64,000 nucleotides of DNA from positions 81,034,001 through 81,098,000 of the forward strand of contig NC_135810.1 of the NCBI RefSeq assembly GCF_964213995.1, in the 5' to 3' direction. A program made the translations under genes and the position numbers. The stretch comes from Mustelus asterias (lineage: Eukaryota). The notes below the pieces were generated by a model. It was given only the letters and a program-made list of their open reading frames with translations, was not told the origin of the DNA and ran no database searches. Position 1 is the first letter of the stretch, and each line of letters starts with the position of its first letter. Of the stretch, positions 19,006 to 61,350 are shown piece by piece.

Positions 19006-20048
19006 GTATCTCTCCTTGACCTTAGTTTATGGATGACGGAGTGGGGTCATGAGCCAACTCATGCTTAACAAATCTAGAAAACTAGTACAATCGAAAAGAT
19101 AAAGCCTGTACTTTTGGCATAATTGTACTTTCAGAAAGCTTTTGATAAAGTCCCACATAAGGGCAAAATTAAAGCACATGGGATTGACGGTAATATATAG
19201 ACATGGATCGGGAATTGATTGACAGGCAGGAGAGTGGGAATAAATGGGTCTTTTTCTAATTAGCAAGCAGTGGCGAGTGGAGTAGCACAGAGATCACTAC
19301 TTGGGCCCCAGCTGTTCACAATATATATAAATGACCTGGATGAGGCAGCCAAATGTAACATTTACAAGTTTGCTGATGACACAAAACTGGGTGGAATTTT
19401 GAGTTGTGAGGAGAATGCACAGTGGTTTCAAGGTAATTTAGACAAGTTGAGTGAGTGGGCAAACACATGGCAGGTGCAGTACTATGTGGCTAAATGTGAA
19501 GTTGTACACTTTGGTGTGAAAAACAGAAAGGAAGAGTATTATTTAAATGCTGATATATTGGGAAGTGTGGATGTACAAAGGAATTTGGGTGTCTTTGTAG
19601 ACCAGTCAATGAACGTGGAGAAGCAAGTAGAGCAAGAAATTGGGAAGGCAAATGATATGTTGACCTTCATTGCTGGAGGATTTGAGTTCAGAAGTGGGGA
19701 TGTCTTCCTGCAGTTACAGTAAGAAGTTTAACAACACCAGGTTAAAGTCCAACTGGGTGAGACCACACCTGGCGTACTGCATGGAGTTTTGGGCTCCCTA
19801 TCTAAGAAAGGATATAGTTGCCATAGTGGGAGTGCAGCAGAGGTTCACTTGGCTGATACTGGGGTTGAGGGACTGTCCTATGAGAGATTGGTTCAACTGG
19901 GCCTGTATTCATTAGAATTCAGAGGATGAGAGGAGATCTGATTGAAACGTATAAAATTTGTACAGGACTGAACAGACTAGATGCAGGGAGGATGTTTTCC
20001 CTGGTTGGGGAATCTAAAACCAGGGGACACAATCTCAGGATACGGAAT

Positions 20049-20346
20049 TGTGGTGAACCAAAGATGGTTACCACTATGGGTACTGAACCATAGATGGTTT
20101 GCACTATGGGTACTTGTACATATGTTACTGTTGTCACTGTTGGGGTTAGGGTTGGGGTGTTCTACCTGTTGGTGTTGTTCTGTGGTACACTCCGCCTACC
20201 TGTAGGAGTATAAAGGTCACTGCACTGCCTGGTGACCCTTTAGTCTGGGATTGTATTGTTAAGCAGTATGCTCCATTCTTGTTACTAATAAAAGCCTTTA
20301 TTTCCCGGGTACGATCCAGCCTCCCGAGTGATTTAATCGCGCATCA
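20049..20346 (+). repeat. 5' LTR (298 bp)
   Basis: Matches the 3' LTR except for 4 substitutions and a 10-bp gap; TATAAA at 20209, AATAAA at 20287. Confidence 0.95.
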
Positions 20347-20387
20347 ATTTTATTAGTAACAATTTTGGTTGAAAAGGAAAAAAAAAC

Positions 20388-22735
20388 ATGGAGCAAATGT
20401 TAAAACCCGATCGGCTTACCTTAGATCCGCGTGCAGCTGGAGCGTCGAACACTTTCGACCATTGGTTGAAGTGTTTCCAAGATTATATCAACGCCTCAAC
20501 AGCCATTCAAAACGACGCCGATAGATTGCGGGTCCTCCACGCAAGGGTAAGCGACACTGTGTCTGCAACAATCCGCGATGCCCAAGACTACAAAGGGGCC
20601 ATCGAACTACTTAAGAAACTATACAACAAACCGCCAAACGAGATTCATGCTCGGCACCTATTAGCCACTCGACGGCGGCAGCCCGGCGAAACGACAGGAC
20701 AGTACCTGCGCGAACTTCAGCAGCTAGCCAGAGCCTGCAATTGCAAGCCAGTGTCAGCGACCCAGTATACTAACGATTTGATCGAGATGCGTTCGTGGCG
20801 GGAATTGGCTCATCTTATATTCGCCTGCGGCTGCTAGAGCAAGGTAACTTAGACCTAGGTAAGACGGTGGAATTGGCTGATGCGATGGAAACGGCCTCCA
20901 GAAGTCTTGAAACTTACCCCACCGACCACGTGGGAACATCGTGGCAAGTACAGCCACCGACTCAACTCTACCCAGAGGCTCCTAGGAACTGCGCGATCGT
21001 GCTTTCAACCTCAGACCTGACGGCGGCGGCAGCTCCAGGTGGCCCGCGGTGCTATTTCTGTGGATTGGCAAAGCACCCTCGTCAGCGATGTCCGGCCAGA
21101 ACGGTATTTTGCTCCGCGTGTGGGAAGAAAGGGCACTATGCTAAAGTGTGCCGAGCGAAACCACCTTCGAAGGCAAGCAGTGCGGCGTGTGACTCTCCAG
21201 GATCTGTCTCCTCGTCTCCGGCTTCGTCGAGGTCTTCCACCACGTGCGATTCACGAGCGCCGCCATTCCTGAGGACGACGACGCAAGACACGTGCGACCT
21301 GCGAGTGCCGCCACTTTCAACGCCATCGACCATGTGCGATCCATGGGCGCAGCCATTTTGGTCGACACCGACCGCAGACGACCAGCAGGGGTCATCACCA
21401 TCGACCATCTCAGCTGCCTGCAGTTGCACTCAAGATTCAACGGTGGCATCAATCATCCTGGACCAGGCCAAGCCTCACAGACTCGACAAGTCCGTGATGG
21501 ACATAGTGGTAAACGGACGCCTGATACATTGTCTGTTTGACAGCGGGAGCACGGAGAGTTTCATTCATCCTGACACCGTGAAACGGTGTGGTCTCCGAGT
21601 ACAGACTGTCAGACAGACAATTTCTATGGCGTCGAGGTCCCGATCTGTTACCGTTCTTGGGAGCTGCGTGGTAAACCTAACGGTGCGGGGCACAGTTTAT
21701 GAGAACTTCAGGCTCCTCGTGTTACCGCACCTTTGCGCTCCGATACTCCTGGGACTAGACTTTATGGTCCACCTGAGGAGTGTGACCCTGCAGTACGATG
21801 GGCCACTCCCTCCACTTTCAGTGGGAGAACAGCAGCCTCCAAATTGCCCAGCGCGCTCCACGTGCAGTCTCTCGACACTCAGAATCACCCCGCCATCTTT
21901 ATTTGAGAATCTCGTGCCAGGCTGCAAGCCCATCGCAACTAAGAGCTGGCGTTACAGCGCTGAGGATCAGATCTTTATTCGATCTGAGGTTCAGCGGCTC
22001 CTCAGGGAAGGGATCATTCAACCTAGCACTAGCCCATGGAGAGCACAAGTCGTGGTGGTTAAAACTGGAGCCAAGCCCCGGATGGTCATAGACTATAGTC
22101 AGACTATTAATAGGTACACGCAGCTGGACGTGTACCCTCTCCCGCGCATATCTGACATGGTCAATCAGATTGCGCAGTACCGGGTGTTCTCCACCATCGA
22201 CTTGAAGTCAGCCTATCACCAGCTCCCCATTCGCCCAGAGGACCGAAGATATACGGCCTTTGAGGCAGATGGCCGTCTCTACCACTTCTTAAGGGTCCCC
22301 TTTGGCGTCACGAATGGGGTCTCGGTCTTCCAGCGTGCAATGGACCGAATGGTGGACCAAAACGGGCTACGGGCTACCTTCCCGTACCTGGACAACGTCA
22401 CTATCTGCGGCCATGACCAGCAGGACCACGATGCCAACCTCCTAAAGTTTTTACGCCCTGTGTCTCGCCTGAATCTGACCTATAACAGGGAGAAGTGTGA
22501 ATTCAGCAAGCGCCGCCTAGCAATTCTCGGATACGTGGTGGAAAACGGGGTCCTTGACCCTGATCCAGACCGTATGCGCCCCCTCCTTGAACTTCCCCTA
22601 CCCACTAGCATCAAAGCACTGAGAAGATGCTTAGGCTTCTTTTCGTATTACGCACAGTGGGTTCCCAATTATGCGGACAAAGCCCGTCCGCTCATAAAGT
22701 CTACCTCTTTTCCCCGGCAGCAGAGGCTCGCTTAG
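20388..22735 (+). pseudogene. Gypsy gag-pol, part 1 (gag with two CCHC knuckles, aspartic protease, RT), frameshifted near 20785
   Basis: CYFCGLAKHPRQRC / CSACGKKGHYAKVC, LFDSGS, IDLKSAYHQ, PFGVTNG, YLDN. Confidence 0.92.
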
Positions 22736-24384
22736 CCTTTGAAGGGATAAAAGCTGACATCGCGAAAGCCACGATGCACGCTGTCGATGAGTCCATCCCC
22801 TTCCAGGTGGAGAGTGATGCATCTGATTTCGCCCTGGCCGCCACACTTAACCAGGCGGGCAGGCCCGTCGCCTTTTTCTCTCGCACCCTCCAAGGCCCTG
22901 AAATTCGGCACTCCGCTGTGGAAAAAGAGGCTCAGGCCATTGTGGAGGCCATCCGGCATTGGCGCCATTACTTGGCTAGAAAACGATTCACCCTGCTCAC
23001 GGACCAGCGGTCCGTGGCCTTCATGTTCAACAACACGTTAAGGGGTAAGATCAAAAATGATAAAATCTTGAGGTGGAGAATCGAACTCTCCACCTCCAAC
23101 TATGATATCATGTACCGTCCGGGGAAGATCAATGAGCCCTCAGATGCCCTGTCGCGTGGAACATGTGCCAGTGTGCAGGAGGACCGGCTACAGGCCCTCC
23201 ACAATGATCTCTGCCATCTGGGGATCACTCGGCTCTTCCATTTTGTAAAGGCCCGGAATCTACCCTACTCCGTAGAGGATGTCAGGTCGATAACTCGAAG
23301 CTGCCAGGTATGTGCTGAATGCAAGCCGCACTTCTTCCGACCTGACAGGGCACACCTCATTAAAGCCACTCACCCTTTTGAAAGACTGAGTGTTGATTTC
23401 AAGGGCCCCCTTCCTTCAACAGATCGGAACGTGTACTTCCTCAACGTGGTTGACGAGTACTCACGTTTCCCTTTTGCCATTCCCTGTTCAGACATGACCG
23501 CTGCCACGGTTATCAAAGCATTGCGGGATCTTTTCACCCTGTTTGGTTACCCCAGTTATATCCACAGTGATAGGGGTTCGTCGTTTATGAGTGACGACTT
23601 GAGGCAATACCTGCTCTCAAAAGGGATTGCCTCAATTAGGACTACGAGTTACAACCCCAGGGGTAACGGGCAGGTCGAAAGAGAAAACACTACAGTCTGG
23701 AAGGCTGTCTTACTGGCGTTGAGGTCTAAGGGTCTTCCAGTCTCCCATTGGCAAGAGGTACTTTCTGATGTGCTCCATTCAATCCGATCCCTCCTGTGTA
23801 CGGCAACGAATGCTACCCCACATGAGCGGATGTTTACCTTCCCTAGGAAGTCTTCCTCTGGGACCACACTGCCGCCTTGGTTGATGTACTCAGGACCTGT
23901 CCTCCTGCGGCAGCATGTTAGGACCCGCAAGTCCGACCCTTTCGTTGAACAGGTCCATCTCCTCCACGCCAACCCTCAATATGCCTATGTAGCATATCCT
24001 GACGGGCGAGAGGACACGGTCTCTATTCGAGATCTGGTGCCTGCAGGGGACCTGGAAACCCCCGTCGCTCCCGCACCCCTGGTTAGGGACCCCTTGCCCT
24101 TTATCTCCCCTCCTGACACGGCGCGGGCAGTATCGGGACCACCACTTAATCCTCTTACTCCCATGTACAGCTTGCCTGAGTCCAGGAGATTGTCGCCACC
24201 TTGGGGCGTTCCTGAGTCTAGGAGATTGTCGCCACCTCGTGGTCCACCCGTCCGTGAGGAACTGGAGGAGTCACTGGACACCGCCTTGGAGAGAGGGTCA
24301 TCACGGTCACCAGAACCGGCGCTACCGCCAGTGTTGAGGAGGTCGCAGAGACGGTGCGGCCCTCCGATACGACTGAACTTGTGA
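22627..24384 (+). pseudogene. Gypsy pol, part 2 (RNase H, integrase), after a frameshift near 22715
   Basis: ESDASD, EKEAQA, LTDQ (RNase H); H..H..C..C, SVDFKGP, HSDRG, GQVER (integrase DDE). Confidence 0.92.
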
Positions 24385-24447
24385 ATATATGGACAGTTCG
24401 TACTGTTTTTTTTGCCCCACCGGCCTTTGTTTTAAAGGAGGGGTGAA

Positions 24448-24755
24448 TGTGGTGAACCATAGATGGTTACCACTATGGGTACTGAACCATAGATGGTTAG
24501 CACTATGGGTACTTGTACATATGTTACTGTTGTCACTGTTGGGGTTAGGGTTGGGGTGGTCTACCTGTTGGTATTGTTCTGTGGTACACTCCGGTTGGCT
24601 CCGCCTACCTGTAGGAGTATAAAGGTCACTGCACTGCCTGGTGACCCTTTAGTCTGGGATTGTATTGTTAAGCAGTATGCTCCATTCTTGTTACTAATAA
24701 AAGCCTTTATTTCCCGGGTACGATCCAGCCTCCCGAGTGATTTAATCGCGCATCA
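24448..24755 (+). repeat. 3' LTR (308 bp)
   Basis: Direct repeat of 20049-20346, preceded by the PPT. Confidence 0.95.
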
Positions 24756-25039
24756 GGAATAGACCATTTAGGACTAAGATGAGGCAACATTTCTTCACTC
24801 AAAGGGTGGTGAACCTATGGAATTCTCTACCACAGAAGGGTGTGGAGGCCAAGTCACTGAATGTATTCAAGAAAGAGATAGATCATTTTTGAGATTTTAA
24901 TGGCAACAAGGGGTATGGTGAGAAAAGGGGAATATGGCATTGGGATTGAGGATCAGCAGTGATCATATTGAATTGTGGGGTAGGCTTGAAGGGCTGAATG
25001 GCTGATTCCTGCTCCTGGTTTCTATGTTTCAAGGGGAAT

Positions 25040-27690: not shown

Positions 27691-28707
27691 CATAGAACAT
27701 AGAACATAGAAAGCCACAGCACAAACAGGCCCTTCGGCCCACAAGTTGCGCCGATCACATCCCCACCTCTAGGCCTATCTATAGCCCTCAATCCCATTAA
27801 ATCCCATGTACTCATCCAGAAGTCTCTTAAAAGACCCCAACGAGTTTGCCTCCACCACCACCGACATCAGCCGATTCCACTCACCCACCACCCTCTGAGT
27901 GAAAAACTTACCCCTGACATCTCCTCTGTACCTACCCCCCAGCACCTTAAACCTGTGTCCTCTCGTAGCAACCATTTCAGCCCTTGGAAATAGCCTCTGA
28001 GAGTCTACCCTATCCAGACCTCTCAACATCTTGTAAACCTCTATCAGGTCACCTCTCATCCTTCGTCTCTCCAGGGAGAAGAGACCAAGCTCCCTCAACC
28101 TATCCTCATAAGGCATGCCCCCCAATCCAGGCAACATCCTTGTAAATCTCCTCTGCACCCTTTCAATGGCTTCAACATCTTTCCTGTAATGAGGTGACCA
28201 GAACTGCGCGCAGTACTCCAAGTGGGGTCTAACCAGGGTCCTATAAAGCTGCAGCATTATCTCCCGACTCCTAAACTCAATCCCTCGATTAATGAAGGCC
28301 AGTACGCCGTACGCCTTCTTGACCGCATCCTCCACCTGCGAGGCCGATTTAAGAGTCCTATGGACCCGGACCCCAAGGTCCTTCTGATCCTCTACACTGC
28401 TAAGAATGGTACCCTTCATATTATACTGCTGCTTCATCCCATTGGATCTGCCAAAATGGATCACCACACACTTATCCGGGTTGAAGTCCATCTGCCACTT
28501 CTCCGCCCAGTCTTGCATTCTATCTATGTCTCGCTGCAACTTCTGACATCCCTCCAAACTATCCACAACACCACCTACCTTGGTGTCGTCAGCAAACTTA
28601 CCAACCCATCCCTCCACTTCCTCATCCAGGTCATTTATGAAAATGACAAACAGCAAGGGTCCCAGAACAGATCCCTGGGGCACTCCACTGGTCACTGACC
28701 TCCATGC
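27691..28707 (-). mobile_element. Young 5'-truncated CR1/HER1 LINE with uninterrupted RT C-terminal ORF, nested in an older + strand CR1 (27440-27690, 28715-28845)
   Basis: ORF 27775-28734: SGVPQGSVLGPLLF, KFADDTK, RPHLEYCAQFW, no stops; (CTATGTT)n tail at 27691-27711. Confidence 0.93.
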
Positions 28708-29377
28708 AGAGAAAGTATCACAGGGAGTTAACATGCAGGTACAGCAAGCAATTCGGAAGGTTGACCTTTGTTACAAGGAGATCGGAATACAAGAACAAGG
28801 GGATCTTGCTACACTTGTCCAGGGCTTTGGTGAGACCACACCTGTGCACAGACTTTGTTACCATCGGCACAGTGGTTCACACTGCTGCCTCTCAGTGCCA
28901 GGGACCCAGGTTTTTTTGTCCTCCTCTTTTGCTTTTCTTTCTTTAGCTTTACTTAAGGAAGATAAGTCAGGCCCAGTGTATCTGGCCCTGCCATGGTCTT
29001 ATCAGTGTCACTAACCCTTTCTGTCCTAAACATCAGCTGATTCATATGTGTTTATCTTGGGGCTTGATCTGTACCTCAGCCTACAGATGTGAACCTTACA
29101 GGTGCTGATTTTAAAAGAAGGTTGAAGGTAGCAGCTCTGGTAATGGATCATGCTGCTCACACATAAACCAGCATGCTAGATTACTTTGCACCATTACAGT
29201 CCTGAAACTCATAGGAATTGTATGTGACAGGTCCTAAGGGAAGTTGAGACTTCTGTCATGGGATGCTTAGACTCATCAGGATGTATAGGTTTTTTTATTC
29301 TTTCATGGAAGGTGAGCATCGCTGGCAAGGCCAGAATTTGTTGTTCATCCCTATTTGGCCTTGAGAAGATGATAATG

Positions 29378-38196: not shown

Positions 38197-38299
38197 TTTT
38201 TTACACTGTTTATGACTTTTGGATCTGTAATTTTGCAATGTTTTATTGGAGAGTTTTTTTTTGTGTGAATAAAGTATATTTTTGAAATAAATAAAAAAA
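38197..38299 (+). mobile_element. Short LINE 3' tail (T-rich, AATAAA, poly-A), probably Tx1-type
   Basis: ...GTGAATAAAGTATATTTTTGAAATAAATAAAAAAA. Confidence 0.5.
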
Positions 38300-38322
38300 T
38301 ACCAGGTCCGCTTCTCGGCCTT

Positions 38323-39109
38323 GCAAGTCAAAGCCTCCCTCTACATGGATGACGTGGCTGTTTTCTGCTCGGACCCCTCGTCTGTTCGCAGGCTTCTTCG
38401 AGTCTGTGAGCAGTTCGAGCTGGCCTCGGGGGCCAAAGTCAACCAGGGTAAGAGTGAGGCCATGTTCTTTGGGTACTGGCCTGACACATCCTTTGTCCCC
38501 TTCACCATTAGGGTAGGCTACCTCAAGGTGCTGGGGATATGGTTCGGAGCGGCAGGGGCATGCGCCAAAAACTGGGAAGAGCGCATCGCCAAAGCCAGAC
38601 AAAAATTGGGATTGTGGGAGCAACGCTCCCTCTCCATCACTGGGAAGAACCTTGTGATCCGATGCGAGGTCCTGTCCGTGTTGTTGTACGTGGCGCAGGT
38701 GTGGCCTCTCCCCAAGTCCTGCGCAGCAGCAGTGACCCGGGCCATCTTCAAGCTCATCTGGAGATCAAAGATGGATCGTGTCCGGAGGGAGGCGATGCAC
38801 AAATCTCCAGAGAACGGAGGGAAAAACGTTCCCAACGCCGCCCTCATCCTGATGGCCACCTTTGTGTGCGGCTGCATCAAGCTGCGTGTAGATCCTCGGT
38901 ACACTAACAGCAAGTGCCACTATTTTTTGAGGTTCTACCTGTCCCAAGTGTTGCGGAGGATGCGTCTGGCCACATTGCCGCGGAACGCTCCAAGTAGTTG
39001 GACCGTACCGCAGCACCTGTCCTTCGTGGAGAAATTCTTCCGGAAACACACCTTTGACCACATGGCTATCAAGCAGTGGTCAGCACGTAATGTCCCAAAA
39101 AACTACATC
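38323..39109 (+). mobile_element. Tx1-clade (Keno-like) non-LTR retrotransposon RT fragment
   Basis: QVKASLYMDDVAVF..FELASGAKVNQGKS..YLKVLGIWF..LSITGKNLVI..GGKNVPN, uninterrupted for ~260 aa; flanked by U2 sequence. Confidence 0.85.
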
Positions 39110-39428
39110 GGCTAAGATCAAGTGTAGTATGGATTGGATGCTGCACTTGGTTGAGGTCATTGGGTTACATTGAAGCTTCATATGTTTCATATGAAGCAAT
39201 TGTTAAAAGCGGCATCTCGGCCTTTTGGCTAAGATGCAAATGAGCTCAAGCCTTGGTGGAGGAACCTCCCCCTTCTCCAATCAGCTTGGCTCATGTAGAT
39301 CAGGCCCAGGACAGGGTGATTTGGTCGCTCGCCCTGTCTTGTCAGCCTGGATCTGAAATGTCTCAACTTGTTGAGACTTTGAATTGGATTTGATTTGATT
39401 GAATTGGAAAAGTAACAAAAAAAAAAAA
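39110..39428 (+). mobile_element. U2 snRNA-headed SINE-like unit A
   Basis: GGCTAAGATCAAGTGTAGTAT (U2 nt 19-39), second U2 fragment at 39215, hairpin-rich body, A tail. Confidence 0.75.
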
Positions 39429-45989: not shown

Positions 45990-48900
45990 GACACCCCCCT
46001 CACTGAGCACCCCCATAACTGATCACCCCCTAATCACCTGATCCACCTACAGGCCACCCAACCCTCACTGACCACCCAACCAACCCCACTGAGCACCCAA
46101 CCCCGAACCACAAACTGAGCATCCTCCACTGACCACCCGGCACCCAAAACCCCACTGACCAACTGGCCGCCGAACTCACACTGACTACCGGACCCCCCCA
46201 CTCTCACACTGACCAGCCGACCCCCCACTCTCATACTCACCCCTGACCCCCCCACTCTCACACTGACCCTCCCACTCTCACACTGACCCCCCCACTCTCA
46301 CACTGACCCCCGATCCCCCACTCTCATACTGACCCCTGACCCCCCCACTCTCACACTGACCGCCGACCCCCCACTCTCATACTGACCCCTGACCCCCCCA
46401 CTCTCACACTGACCCTCCCACTGACACCCGACCCCCCACTCTCACACTGACTCCCGACCCCCCACTCTCACACTGACCCCCAACCCCCCACTCTCACACT
46501 GACCCCCGACCCCCCACTCTCACACTGACCCCCGACCCCCCACTCTCACACTGACCCCTGACCCCCCACTCTCACACTGACCCCCGACCCCCCACTCTCA
46601 TACTGACCCCTAACCCTCCCCCACTCTCACTATGACCCTCCCACTCTCATATTGACCCCCGACCCCCCCTCTCACACTGACCCCCCCACTCTCACAAAGA
46701 CCCCCGACTGCCCCCACTCTCACACAGACCCCCCCACTCTCACACTGATCACCTGACACCCCCACTCTCACACTGACCACCCGATCCCCTCATTCTCATC
46801 CTGACCACCCAACCCCCTCACTCTCACACTGACCAGCTGACAACCCCAATCTCACACTGACCCCCGACCCCCTCCCCACTCTCACACTGACCCCCCACTC
46901 TCACACTGACCCCCAACCCTCCCACTCTCACACTGACCCCCGACACCCCGAATCTCACACTGACCCCCGACATCCCCACTCTCACACTGACCCCCGACCC
47001 CCCCACTCTCATACTGACCCCCACCCTCCCACTCACACTGACCCCGACCCCCCACTCTCACACTGACCCCCACCCTCCCACTCTCACACTGACCCCCGAC
47101 ACCCCCACTCTCACACTGACCCCCGACACCCCCACTCTCATACTGACCCCCACCCTCCCACTCACACTGACCCTGACCCCCCACTCTCACACTGACCCCC
47201 ACCCTCCCACTCTCACACTGACCCCCGACTCCCCCACTCTCACACTGACCCCCGACTCCACCACTCTCACACTGACCTCCCGAACCCCACTCTCACACTG
47301 ACCCCCCCACTCTCACACTGACCCCCGACCCCCCACTCTCACACTGACCCCCGACCCCCCACTCTCACACTGACCCCCCCCACTCTCACACTGACCCCCG
47401 ACCCCCCACTCTCACACTGACCCCCGACCCCCCCACTCTCACACTGACCACCGACCCCCACTCTCACACTGACCCCCGACCCCCCACTCTCACACTGACC
47501 CCTGACCCCCCCTACTCTCACACTGACCCCTGACCCCCCCACTCTCACACTGACCCCTGACCCCCCACTCTCACACTGACCCCCGACCCCCCACTCTCAT
47601 ACTGACCCCTAACCCTCCCCCACTCTCACTATGACCCTCCCACTCTCATATTGACCCCCGACCCCCCCTCTCACACTGACCCCCCCACTCTCACAAAGAC
47701 CCCCGACTACCCCCACTCTCACACAGACCCCCCCACTCTCACACTGATCACCTGACACCCCCACTCTCACACTGACCACCCGATCCCCTCATTCTCATCC
47801 TGACCACCCAACCCCCTCACTCTCACACTGACCAGCTGACAACCCCAATCTCACACTGACCCCCGACCCCCTCCCCACTCTCACACTGACCCCCCACTCT
47901 CACACTGACCCCCAACCCTCCCACTCTCACACTGACCCCCGACACCCCGAATCTCACACTGACCCCCGACATCCCCACTCTCACACTGACCCCCGACCCC
48001 CCCACTCTCATACTGACCCCCACCCTCCCACTCACACTGACCCCGACCCCCCACTCTCACACTGACCCCCACCCTCCCACTCTCACACTGACCCCTGACA
48101 CCCCCACTCTCACACTGACCCCCGACACCCCCACTCTCAAACTGACCCCCACCCTTCCACTCACACTGACCCTGACCCCCCACTCTCACACTGACCCCCA
48201 CCCTCCCACTCTCACACTGACCCCCGACTCCCCCACTCTCACACTGACCCCCGACACCACCACTCTCACACTGACCTCCCGAACCCCACTCTCACTGACC
48301 CCCGACCCCCCACTCTCACACTGACCCCCCCCACTCTCACACTGACCCCCGACCCCCCACTCTCACACTGACCCCCGACCCCCCCACTCTCACACTGACC
48401 ACCGACCCCCCACTCTCACACTGACCCCCGACCCCCCACTCTCACACTGACCCCTGACCCCCCTACTCTCACACTGACCCCTGACCCCCCCACTCTCACA
48501 CTGACCCCTGACCCCCCACTCTCACACTGACCCCCGACCCCCCCCTCTCACACTGACCCCTAACCCTCCCCCACTCTCACTATGACCCTCCCACTCTCAT
48601 ATTGACCCCCGACCCCCCCTCTCACACTGACCCCCCCACTCTCACAAAGACCCCCGACTACCCCCACTCTCACACAGACCCCCCCACTCTCACACTGATC
48701 ACCTGACACCCCCACTCTCACACTGACCACCCGATCCCCTCATTCTCATCCTGACCACCCAACCCCCTCACTCTCACACTGACCAGCTGACAACCCCAAT
48801 CTCACACTGACCCCCGACCCCCTCCCCACTCTCACACTGACCCCCCACTCTCACACTGACCCCCAACCCTCCCACTCTCACACTGACCCCCGACACCCCG

Positions 48901-50580
48901 AATCTCACACTGACCCCCGACATCCCCACTCTCACACTGACCCCCGACCCCCCCACTCTCATACTGACCCCCACCCTCCCACTCACACTGACCCCGACCC
49001 CCCACTCTCACACTGACCCCCACCCTCCCACTCTCACACTGACCCCTGACACCCCCACTCTCACACTGACCCCCGACACCCCCACTCTCAAACTGACCCC
49101 CACCCTCCCACTCACACTGACCCCCCACTCTCACACTGACCCCCACCCTCCCACTCTCACACTGACCCCCGACTCCCCCACTCTCACACTGACCCCCGAC
49201 ACCACCACTCTCACACTGACCTCCCGAACCCCACTCTCACTGACCCCCGACCCCCCACTCTCACACTGACCCCCCCCACTCTCACACTGACCCCCGACCC
49301 CCCACTCTCACACTGACCCCCGACCCCCCCACTCTCACACTGACCACCGACCCCCCACTCTCACACTGACCCCTGACCCCCCACTCTCACACTGACCCCT
49401 GACCCCCCTACTCTCACACTGACCCCTGACCCCCCCACTCTCACACTGACCCCTGACCCCCCACTCTCACACTGACCCCCGACCCCCCACTCTCACACTG
49501 ACCCCTAACCCTCCCCCACTCTCACTATGACCCTCCCACTCTCATATTGACCCCCGACCCCCCCTCTCACACTGACCCCCCCACTCTCACAAAGACCCCC
49601 GACTACCCCCACTCTCACACAGACCCCCCCACTCTCACACTGATCACCTGACACCCCCACTCTCACACTGACCACCCGATCCCCTCATTCTCATCCTGAC
49701 CACCCAACCCCCTCACTCTCACACTGACCAGCTGACAACCCCAATCTCACACTGACCCCCGACCCCCTCCCCACTCTCACACTGACCCCCCACTCTCACA
49801 CTGACCCCCAACCCTCCCACTCTCACACTGACCCCCGACACCCCGAATCTCACACTGACCCCCGACATCCCCACTCTCACACTGACCCCCGACCCCCCCA
49901 CTCTCATACTGACCCCCACCCTCCCACTCACACTGACCCCGACCCCCCACTCTCACACTGACCCCCACCCTCCCACTCTCACACTGACCCCTGACACCCC
50001 CACTCTCACACTGACCCCCGACACCCCCACTCTCATACTGACCCCCACCCTCCCACTCACACTGACCCTGACCCCCCACTCTCACACTGACCCCCACCCT
50101 CCCACTCTCACACTGACCCCCGACTCCCCCACTCTCACACTGACCCCCGACTCCACCACTCTCACACTGACCTCCCGAACCCCACTCTCACTGACCCCCG
50201 ACCCCCCACTCTCACACTGACCCCCCCCACTCTCACACTGACCCCCGACCCCCCACTCTCACACTGACCCCCGACCCCCCACTCTCACACTGACCCCCCC
50301 CCCACTCTCACACTGACCCCCCCCCTCTCACACTGACCCCCGACCCCCCACTCTCACACTGACCCCCCCACTCTCACACTGACCCCCGACCCCCCACTCT
50401 CACACTGACCCCCGACCCCCCCACTCTCACACTGACCACCGACCCCCCACTCTCACACTGACCCCCGACCCCCCACTCTCACACTGACCCCTGACCCCCC
50501 TACTCTCACACTGACCCCTGACCCCCCCACTCTCACACTGACCCCCGACCCCCCCACTCTCACATTGACCACCCCCAACC
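45990..50580. repeat. C-rich minisatellite (~18-27 bp unit ACTCTCACACTGACCCCCGACCCCCC) with ~950-1000 bp higher-order repeats
   Basis: Tandem array; diagnostic variants recur at 46824, 47823, 48774 and 49719 (spacing 999, 951, 945). Confidence 0.97.
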
Positions 50581-60124: not shown

Positions 60125-61350
60125 TTCTTTCACGCATCAGCAACCCTTGTCTTTCTAGCTTGGAAAGGTTGTGGATTTGGAAGGTGCTGTCGAAGGAACA
60201 TTGGTGAGTCACTGCAATGCATCTTGTAGATAGTGCACACTGCTGCTACTATGCACCGGTGGTGGAGGGAGTGAATATTGAAGGTGGTAGAAGGGGTGTC
60301 AACCAAGTGAGCTGCTTTATTGTCCTGGATGATATTGAGCTTTTTTAGTGTTCTTGGAGCTGCACCCATTCAAGCAAGTGGGGAGTATTCCGTTACACTC
60401 CTATCTTGTGCCTTGAGAATGGTTGACAGGCTTTGGGAACATCAGGATGTGAGTTACTCGCCGGAGGATTCCTAGCCTCTGACCAATTTTTGTAGTCAAA
60501 ATATTTATGTGGCTGATCCAATGTAGCTTCTGGTCAATGGTAACCGCCAGGATGTTGATAGTGGGGATTCAGCAATGGTAATGCTATTCAATGTCATGGG
60601 GCAATGGTTAGATTCTCTCTTGTTGGAGATGGTTACTGCCTGACAATAGTGTGACACAAATGTTACTTGCCACTTGTCAGCCCAAGGCTGAATGTTGTCC
60701 AGGTCTTGTTGCATTTGGACATGGGCTGTTTCAGTATCTGAGGAGTCACAAATAGTGCTGAACATTGTGCAAACATCAGTGAACATCCCCACTTCTGACT
60801 TTATGATGGAAGAAAGGTCATTGATGAAAGAGTTGAAGATGGTTGGGCCTAAGACACTACCCTCAGGATCTCCTGCAGAGATGTCCTGGAGCTGAGACAA
60901 CCAACAACAACAACCATCTTCCTTTGTGCAAGGTAGGAAACCAACTAGTGGAGAGTTTTCTCTGATTTCCATTCGTCCTAGATTTGTGAGGGCTCTTTGA
61001 TGCCACATTCAGTTAAATGCTGCCCTGATGTCAAGGACAGTCACTCTCGCTTCATCTCTGGAGATCAGCTCTTTTGTCCATGTTTGGACCAAGGCTGTAA
61101 TGATTTCAGGAGCTGAACGGCCCTGGCAGGACCCAAGCAGTGTTATTGTGCAGGTTATTATTGATTAAGGGCCACTTGGTAGCACCGTTCTGATGATTGA
61201 GGGTAGACTGATGCGGCCTAATTCACCCAGCTGCATTTCTCATGTTTTTTGTGGACAGGCCTTACCTGGGCAATTTTCCACATTGTTGCATAGGTGCCAG
61301 TGTTGTAGCTGTACTGGAACAGCTTGACTAGGGATGTGGCAAATTCTGGA
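60125..61350 (-). mobile_element. Degenerate CR1-group LINE (different subfamily), RT to 3' end
   Basis: GDPEGSVLGPTIFNSFINDL..MFTDVC..QQDLDNIQPWADKWQVTF. Confidence 0.8.

Follow-up and report, generated by a model that had tools for sequence, protein, structure and literature searches.

An inverted repeat at the primer-binding position points to Tf1-type self-priming in animal Gypsy elements without a chromodomain

Self-priming of reverse transcription counts as a hallmark of the Tf1/sushi group of retrotransposons, and to our knowledge it has been tested experimentally only in fission-yeast elements. According to the accessible text of the cited sources, Tf1 RNA pairs through its first 11 bases with a site that follows the LTR, and a cut by RNase H between bases 11 and 12 releases the primer (PMC7175516), while about half of the Tf1 cDNA keeps the copied primer-binding site (PBS) (PMC11042837). 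Accounts of self-priming in the Tf1/sushi group, as far as those sources are available, cover fungi and vertebrates (PMC4600332, PMC5341516, bioRxiv 2022.12.06.519325, PMC2864245, PMC5006619, PMC5443660, PMC3601003). In the accessible part of a further paper, self-priming is predicted from LTR/PBS complementarity for the Tcn1 chromoviruses of mosses and for the plant copia elements TAR, Houba and Osr-1, and priming by half a tRNA-Ile is given for the Bianca copia elements (PMC6317226). The prediction for TAR implies that self-priming is not confined to elements with a chromodomain (PMC6317226, accessible part).

The mechanism that we propose here for a clade of animal Gypsy elements is a variant of this one, known from Tf1/sushi and predicted for Tcn1 and some copia elements. 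We found no report of self-priming in this clade in the literature, which was covered mostly through papers outside subscription.

The window element and its 15-nt complementarity

The window, by which we mean the whole 64-kb stretch of DNA that was analysed, contains a young Gypsy element with its nearest kin in sharks and rays (Table 1). A pair of LTRs opening with TG and closing with CA, a target duplication, a polypurine tract and the order gag-PR-RT-RH-IN place it in Ty3/Gypsy. The end of the 5' LTR was set by alignment of the two LTRs together with the 5-bp target duplication; in this alignment 4 substitutions and one 10-nt indel separate the LTRs. The coding region is interrupted by two frameshifts.

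Table 1. Features of the window element (positions in the window)
Feature	Position	Strand	Basis
Target-site duplication, left copy, GGAAT	20044..20048	.	sequence
5' LTR, 298 bp, TG...CA	20049..20346	+	
30-bp tandem duplication opening U3, found in both LTRs	20054..20114	+	
TATAAA, candidate TATA box	20209..20214	+	sequence; function putative
Initiator-like TTAGTC, A at 20242, 33 nt past the TATA start; candidate start site A	20240..20245	+	
8 nt that could form a helix with the start of gag (20388-20395), provided that the RNA starts upstream of the arm	20269..20276	+	
Left arm, candidate self-primer; AATAAA at 20287-20292; candidate start site B at about 20281-20284	20279..20293	+	
Conserved RCCT right after the putative cut; weak 4-bp stem (20294-20297 with 20307-20310)	20294..20310	+	
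Primer-binding position (right arm), 1 nt 3' of the LTR; perfect complement of 20279-20293	20348..20362	+	
Gag N-terminal frame; a frameshift near 20783 breaks the frame	20388..20837	+	
Remaining Gag (two CCHC knuckles), protease, reverse transcriptase (YLDN); second frameshift near 22710-22735	20774..22735	+	
RNase H and integrase, without chromodomain	22609..24384	+	Pfam
Polypurine tract touching the 3' LTR	24434..24447	+	
3' LTR, 308 bp; second copy of the arm at 24688-24702, partner absent downstream	24448..24755	+	
Target-site duplication, right copy, GGAAT	24756..24760	.	sequence

A preliminary description of this locus claimed that the position usually occupied by a tRNA primer-binding site is instead a 15-nt complement of the element's own LTR. 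This is borne out: the right arm, which begins 1 nt past the CA closing the 5' LTR, is the exact reverse complement of the left arm, and no outward extension of the match is possible. AATAAA, TATAAA and TTAGTC likewise lie where that description had placed them, and TGG is absent 3' of the 5' LTR, in keeping with its claim that there is no PBS beginning with TGG. When shuffled versions of the LTR were compared with the 25 nt that follow it, none of 10,000 dinucleotide shuffles reached a match of 15 nt (the best, 14, was found twice), and the 25 nt after the 3' LTR, serving as a control, match the LTR over only 7 nt at best. The window contains copies of the left arm in the two LTRs and nowhere else, and a single copy of the right arm. 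Since the right arm is unique and lies outside the LTR, an intramolecular hairpin can form at the 5' end only, as had also been claimed. The 64-kb window contains no tRNA genes, and a search of the LTR against Rfam gave no family at threshold, with weak matches at chance level only.

As regards the surroundings, the DNA 3' of the Gypsy element matches repeats elsewhere in the window. Weak reverse transcriptase (RT) matches at 19264-19722, 27775-28770, 38291-39115 and 60505-61008, one of which the Gypsy element adjoins, are probably LINE remnants. A C-rich satellite lies at 46175-50570, with a unit of 26-27 nt, a higher-order period of about 945-1000 bp and 99-100% identity.

Conservation of the layout among related elements

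Among named proteins the nearest come from sharks and rays (79-82% in RT), and the next nearest, at 55-65%, from corals, molluscs, a sea cucumber, a tunicate, insects, a crustacean and Trichinella; by larger groups, the hosts of homologues are sharks, corals, molluscs, echinoderms, tunicates, arthropods and nematodes. An unrooted RT tree of 39 rows (L088, a short RT piece, was dropped, and the label of L059 stems from a spurious repeat) groups the window element with shark and ray proteins (100/100) among animal elements; having no named chromovirus or Mag reference, the tree is silent on the relation to either. The claim that the element lacks a chromodomain is upheld by Pfam, which detects none in its three frames, none in 14 of 14 relatives scanned (E up to 1; some sequences end early) and none among the lists of 120 hits. 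The RT catalytic motif, which is YLDD in Ty3, reads YLDN in the window element. YxDN is carried by 85 of 120 homologues and by 56 of 88 loci, which makes it a trait of the clade and not a product of decay; literature searches on YLDN turned up no relevant paper.

Two CCHC knuckles and 5-bp target duplications are typical of Mag elements, which use tRNA primers, and the window element has both features. It also resembles the Mag lineage and the short metazoan Gypsy clades (A/B/C, CsRN1, MolGy, PolGy) in being a short element (about 4-4.7 kb) with short LTRs, as reported for Mag and CsRN1 in the accessible text of PMC11117352. The accessible portions of surveys of metazoan Gypsy, MolGy, PolGy and Tetraodontiform elements (PMC6238403, PMC8556966, PMC8220671, PMC11117352) gave nothing on primer sites, and those of the Troyka paper (PMC12440569) contain none of the relevant terms.

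To follow the inverted repeat through the clade, 88 related loci were fetched, of which 47 were evaluable, having a detectable gag start and upstream DNA; the rest dropped out for want of a gag hit (20), insufficient length (17) or missing upstream DNA (4). Scans of viral contigs were negative. In a test anchored on gag, an inverted repeat scoring at least 10 was present in the same layout in 42 of the 47 evaluable loci. Of the five below the cut-off, two seem to be mis-anchored, and in a third the repeat, 9 nt long, lies at the usual site. RT identity between the query and the loci sharing the layout is 40-68%. A second, independent scan, with RT as its anchor, retained 42 of 62 sequences, the window included; three of the 42 later turned out to be spurious or misplaced, and in 38 the right arm starts 1 nt past a CA. 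Controls placed inside pol gave matches of 7-10 nt, except at two loci, where they were 12 and 13 nt long. Eight of the loci (L081-L088) are animal-type retrotransposons in contigs labelled as bacterial metagenome-assembled genomes, most likely through host contamination.

The pairing also covaries. Self-pairing spans 11-19 nt (mean 14.2) in 25 LTR types, which were hand-picked among loci preselected for a repeat of at least 10 nt, so that pairing at positions -1 to -10 is partly by construction; pairing across families averages 5.8 nt and reaches at least 11 nt in 2 of 600 pairs. For this analysis L076, with a repeat that is not at gag, was omitted, and L013 was used for L010 and L086 for L083. 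The shortest duplexes, in L024 and L061, are exactly 11 nt, the length of the Tf1 primer (PMC7175516, accessible text). None of the 25 LTR types listed has TGG directly after the LTR. Between near relatives, compensatory swaps are seen on both arms in L007/L008, L005/L009 and L054/L070. In contigs close to the window family, C20285>G is accompanied by its partner G20356>C in three of four runs, unphased (268/358 and 41/51 of the depth in X1; 34% and 12% in X3; 33% and 15% in X5). A20284>G is also common in these contigs, and its partner change is not among the rows listed. Close relatives of the window family thus apparently carry one compensatory change. The complementarity is a real, conserved, clade-wide feature, in which the layout is kept while the letters change, and its conservation and covariation across related families lend support to the self-priming interpretation put forward in the preliminary description.

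The proposed priming reaction and its alternatives

We regard Tf1-type self-priming in a Gypsy clade without a chromodomain as the best reading of this locus, and as a probable one. Its observed part consists of the pairing, with its position, conservation and covariation; the cut, the enzyme and the priming itself we infer. Under such a model, minus-strand DNA synthesis would be primed by the element's own RNA: the LTR-derived arm would fold onto the site immediately past U5, the RT/RNase H of the element would, by analogy with Tf1, cleave the RNA where the duplex ends on its 3' side, at the junction of ...TAAA with a conserved RCC, and the freed 3' end would, as in Tf1, be extended through U5 and R. 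With less certainty, transcription in most of the clade may begin on an initiator-like AG located 11 nt from the cut or a few bases upstream of it, which would make the RNA's own 5' end, some 11-16 nt, the primer. This primer may then be copied back into the binding site in each cycle; such copying would preserve the match between the arms, and might account for the covariation with no need of pairwise selection.

The sequence around the putative cut is itself conserved. The arm is followed by RCCT, with C at +2 in 21 of the 25 LTR types and C at +3 in 23, and this motif opens a short RCC...GGY stem. The stem averages 4.2 bp against 2.8 bp in shuffles (0 of 2000 as good); in a comparison of self with cross-family pairing, 366 of 20,000 permutations did as well, and the stem is weak in the window copy and better in relatives. 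A crude cross-family energy test did not reveal flanking duplexes like the two of the Tf1 'pretzel': 14234 and 8563 of 20,000 permutations scored as well.

Tf1 and Tf2 of Schizosaccharomyces pombe, Tj1, Tosmo and Tf1/sushi elements likewise have no tRNA site, and pair the position after the LTR with the LTR over a core of 11 nt (accessible text of PMC7175516, PMC4600332 and bioRxiv 2022.12.06.519325). Unlike Tf1/sushi elements, the window clade has no chromodomain, its duplex is usually longer (mean 14 nt), its arm mostly ends in a poly(A) hexamer and its homologues mostly carry YxDN; in place of the pretzel side duplexes, unseen in our crude test, it has the small RCC...GGY stem. Judged by its signature, the window element appears to work like Tf1, but it departs from that group in the chromodomain and pretzel features. 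Tcn1, TAR, Houba and Osr-1 belong to other lineages and hosts, and TAR has the copia gene order.

In HIV-1 and other retroviruses, a poly(A) hairpin represses the signal of the 5' LTR by holding the hexamer in a stem. In the window element the hexamer is likewise held in a predicted stem at the 5' end, but it pairs with a strand beyond the LTR, in the primer position, which makes the stem impossible at the 3' end. The preliminary description suggested that, besides or instead of serving in self-priming, the hairpin masks the poly(A) signal in the 5' LTR. For the window copy this fits the folding predictions, where AATAAA is paired with a probability of 0.89-1.0 at the 5' end and is mostly open in the 3' LTR (0.2-0.4); it does not hold throughout the clade, since the arm ends in AATAAA or ATTAAA in only 15 of 25 LTR types. 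In the other 10 the arms pair with no canonical hexamer involved; 3 of these types carry one farther downstream, outside the duplex. Masking is therefore better described as a plausible side function than as a constant feature: in about 60% of LTR types the duplex used for priming would also cover the hexamer of the 5' LTR, likely as a side benefit.

A stronger form of this idea, in which the hairpin serves solely to hide the poly(A) signal and something else primes, could account for the hexamer at the arm's end in those 15 types and for the predicted difference between the two LTRs. It leaves unexplained the 10 types that pair without a hexamer, including the 3 with a hexamer beyond the duplex, and the fixed place of the right arm 1 nt past the LTR (38/42), where a primer must end and which masking does not need. 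With no other primer site visible, we consider masking as the sole function quite unlikely. Somewhat less likely again is a host primer, a tRNA half or other small RNA, to which the LTR match would be secondary. The seven arm bases 20285-20291 fit what we take to be the general anticodon-loop pattern of tRNA-Ile(AAU). Priming by half a tRNA-Ile is moreover on record for Bianca (PMC6317226, accessible part). Against a host primer, the arm varies from family to family yet always matches its own LTR, and the common variant at 20285 alters the first of these seven bases together with its partner. Finally, the two arms might form an inverted repeat that acts at the DNA level, or an accidental one, without any part in priming, produced by a chance match of A+T-rich sequence or left as the scar of a strand switch; that both arms are A+T-rich speaks for it. 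Such an origin is very improbable and is largely refuted by the shuffles (0/10,000) and by the recurrence of the arrangement (42 of 47 loci, with RT identities of 40-68%), while matches inside pol stay at 7-10 nt in all but two loci.

Should Tf1-type self-priming hold for a widespread animal clade that shares the signature and lacks a chromodomain, the trait would be older or would have arisen repeatedly. Many animal elements would then presumably escape control by tRNA supply and tRNA fragments, and annotation tools that rely on a tRNA site would miss or mislabel them. The fixed position of the putative cut, the initiator-like motif and the natural compensatory variants make the mechanism directly testable.

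The start of the RNA

The preliminary description placed the paired segment about 40 nt inside the RNA. The spacing of the TATA box and initiator in the window LTR agrees with this, but in about half of the relatives an initiator-like motif lies 11 nt from the arm's end, and TATA boxes are rare among them. Specifically, the initiator consensus YHAGYH, a pattern picked post hoc after the alignment had been viewed, occurs with its A at -11 in 13 of 24 LTR types and in no more than 3 at any other position (L058, which has no upstream DNA, was left out), and a TATA box is found within 120 nt upstream in 3 of the 24. The window copy has T at -11, and its sole initiator match is the one at 20242, behind the TATA box. 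Taken together, the -11 motif and the rarity of TATA boxes suggest a Tf1-like primer at the 5' end of the RNA. Pairing nevertheless continues past -11 beyond chance (mean extension 3.24 against 0.54; 0 of 20,000 permutations): at -12 to -16 it stands at 92, 76, 75, 67 and 46%, compared with 30-45% across families, and falls to background from -17. A fixed start at -11 would therefore require scatter of the start site, or slightly earlier starts. In the window copy a 10-nt primer from 20284 would pair with a predicted energy of only -6.6 kcal/mol, compared with -14.1 kcal/mol for 15 nt, which, like the T at -11, counts against such a start in this copy.

In the shark branch an upstream start at about 20242 is possible, given the TATA box 33 nt before TTAGTC and a possible 8-bp helix. 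Self-priming would then involve a primer other than the 5' end of the RNA: either the RNA starts at 20242, leaving the primer with some 37 unpaired nt at its 5' end, or the 3' LTR of the partner RNA supplies the arm. This is a sub-case of Tf1-type self-priming, and its weight is counted within that reading; we hold it to be unlikely. The spacing just mentioned is consistent with it, as are the pairing of relatives as far as -15/-16 and the extra helix between 20269-20276 and the start of gag, although the latter is matched in stability by 147 of 5000 shuffles and is not general in relatives. Arguing against an internal primer are the presence of an upstream TATA box in only 3/24 types, the lack of significant pairing farther out across families (-50 to -21 with +21 to +60; 1759/20,000) and the fall of pairing to background from -17, as expected if the RNA begins there. 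A related copy, seen at the loose end of a single contig, has a TATA-like stretch about 25 nt before 20284, a single observation to which we give no weight.

The account might be carried further, to a YxDN animal Gypsy clade of non-chromoviruses with independent self-priming and a cut after the poly(A) hexamer, in whose shark branch the primer would be internal RNA with a 5' tail or the partner's 3' LTR, and the duplex would both silence 5' polyadenylation and prime. We put this combination forward as a tentative one, and doubt it on balance.

A 3' splice site at the AG at -11 was rejected, by the reasoning that pairing crosses the AG and splicing would destroy the duplex. Pyrimidine tracts ending in CAG, resembling 3' splice sites, are present 15-30 nt before the arm in L030, L053, L054, L071 and L088, and in these families the RNA could come from farther upstream. 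The words TTACC and CTACC, which resemble 5' splice sites in antisense, recur in U3 of L007, L004, L013, L030 and L088 and at 20163-20203 of the window; across the several LTRs with a TACC motif in U3 it has no fixed position. The U3 regions of the window element and L007 have TACCTGTTGGT in common.
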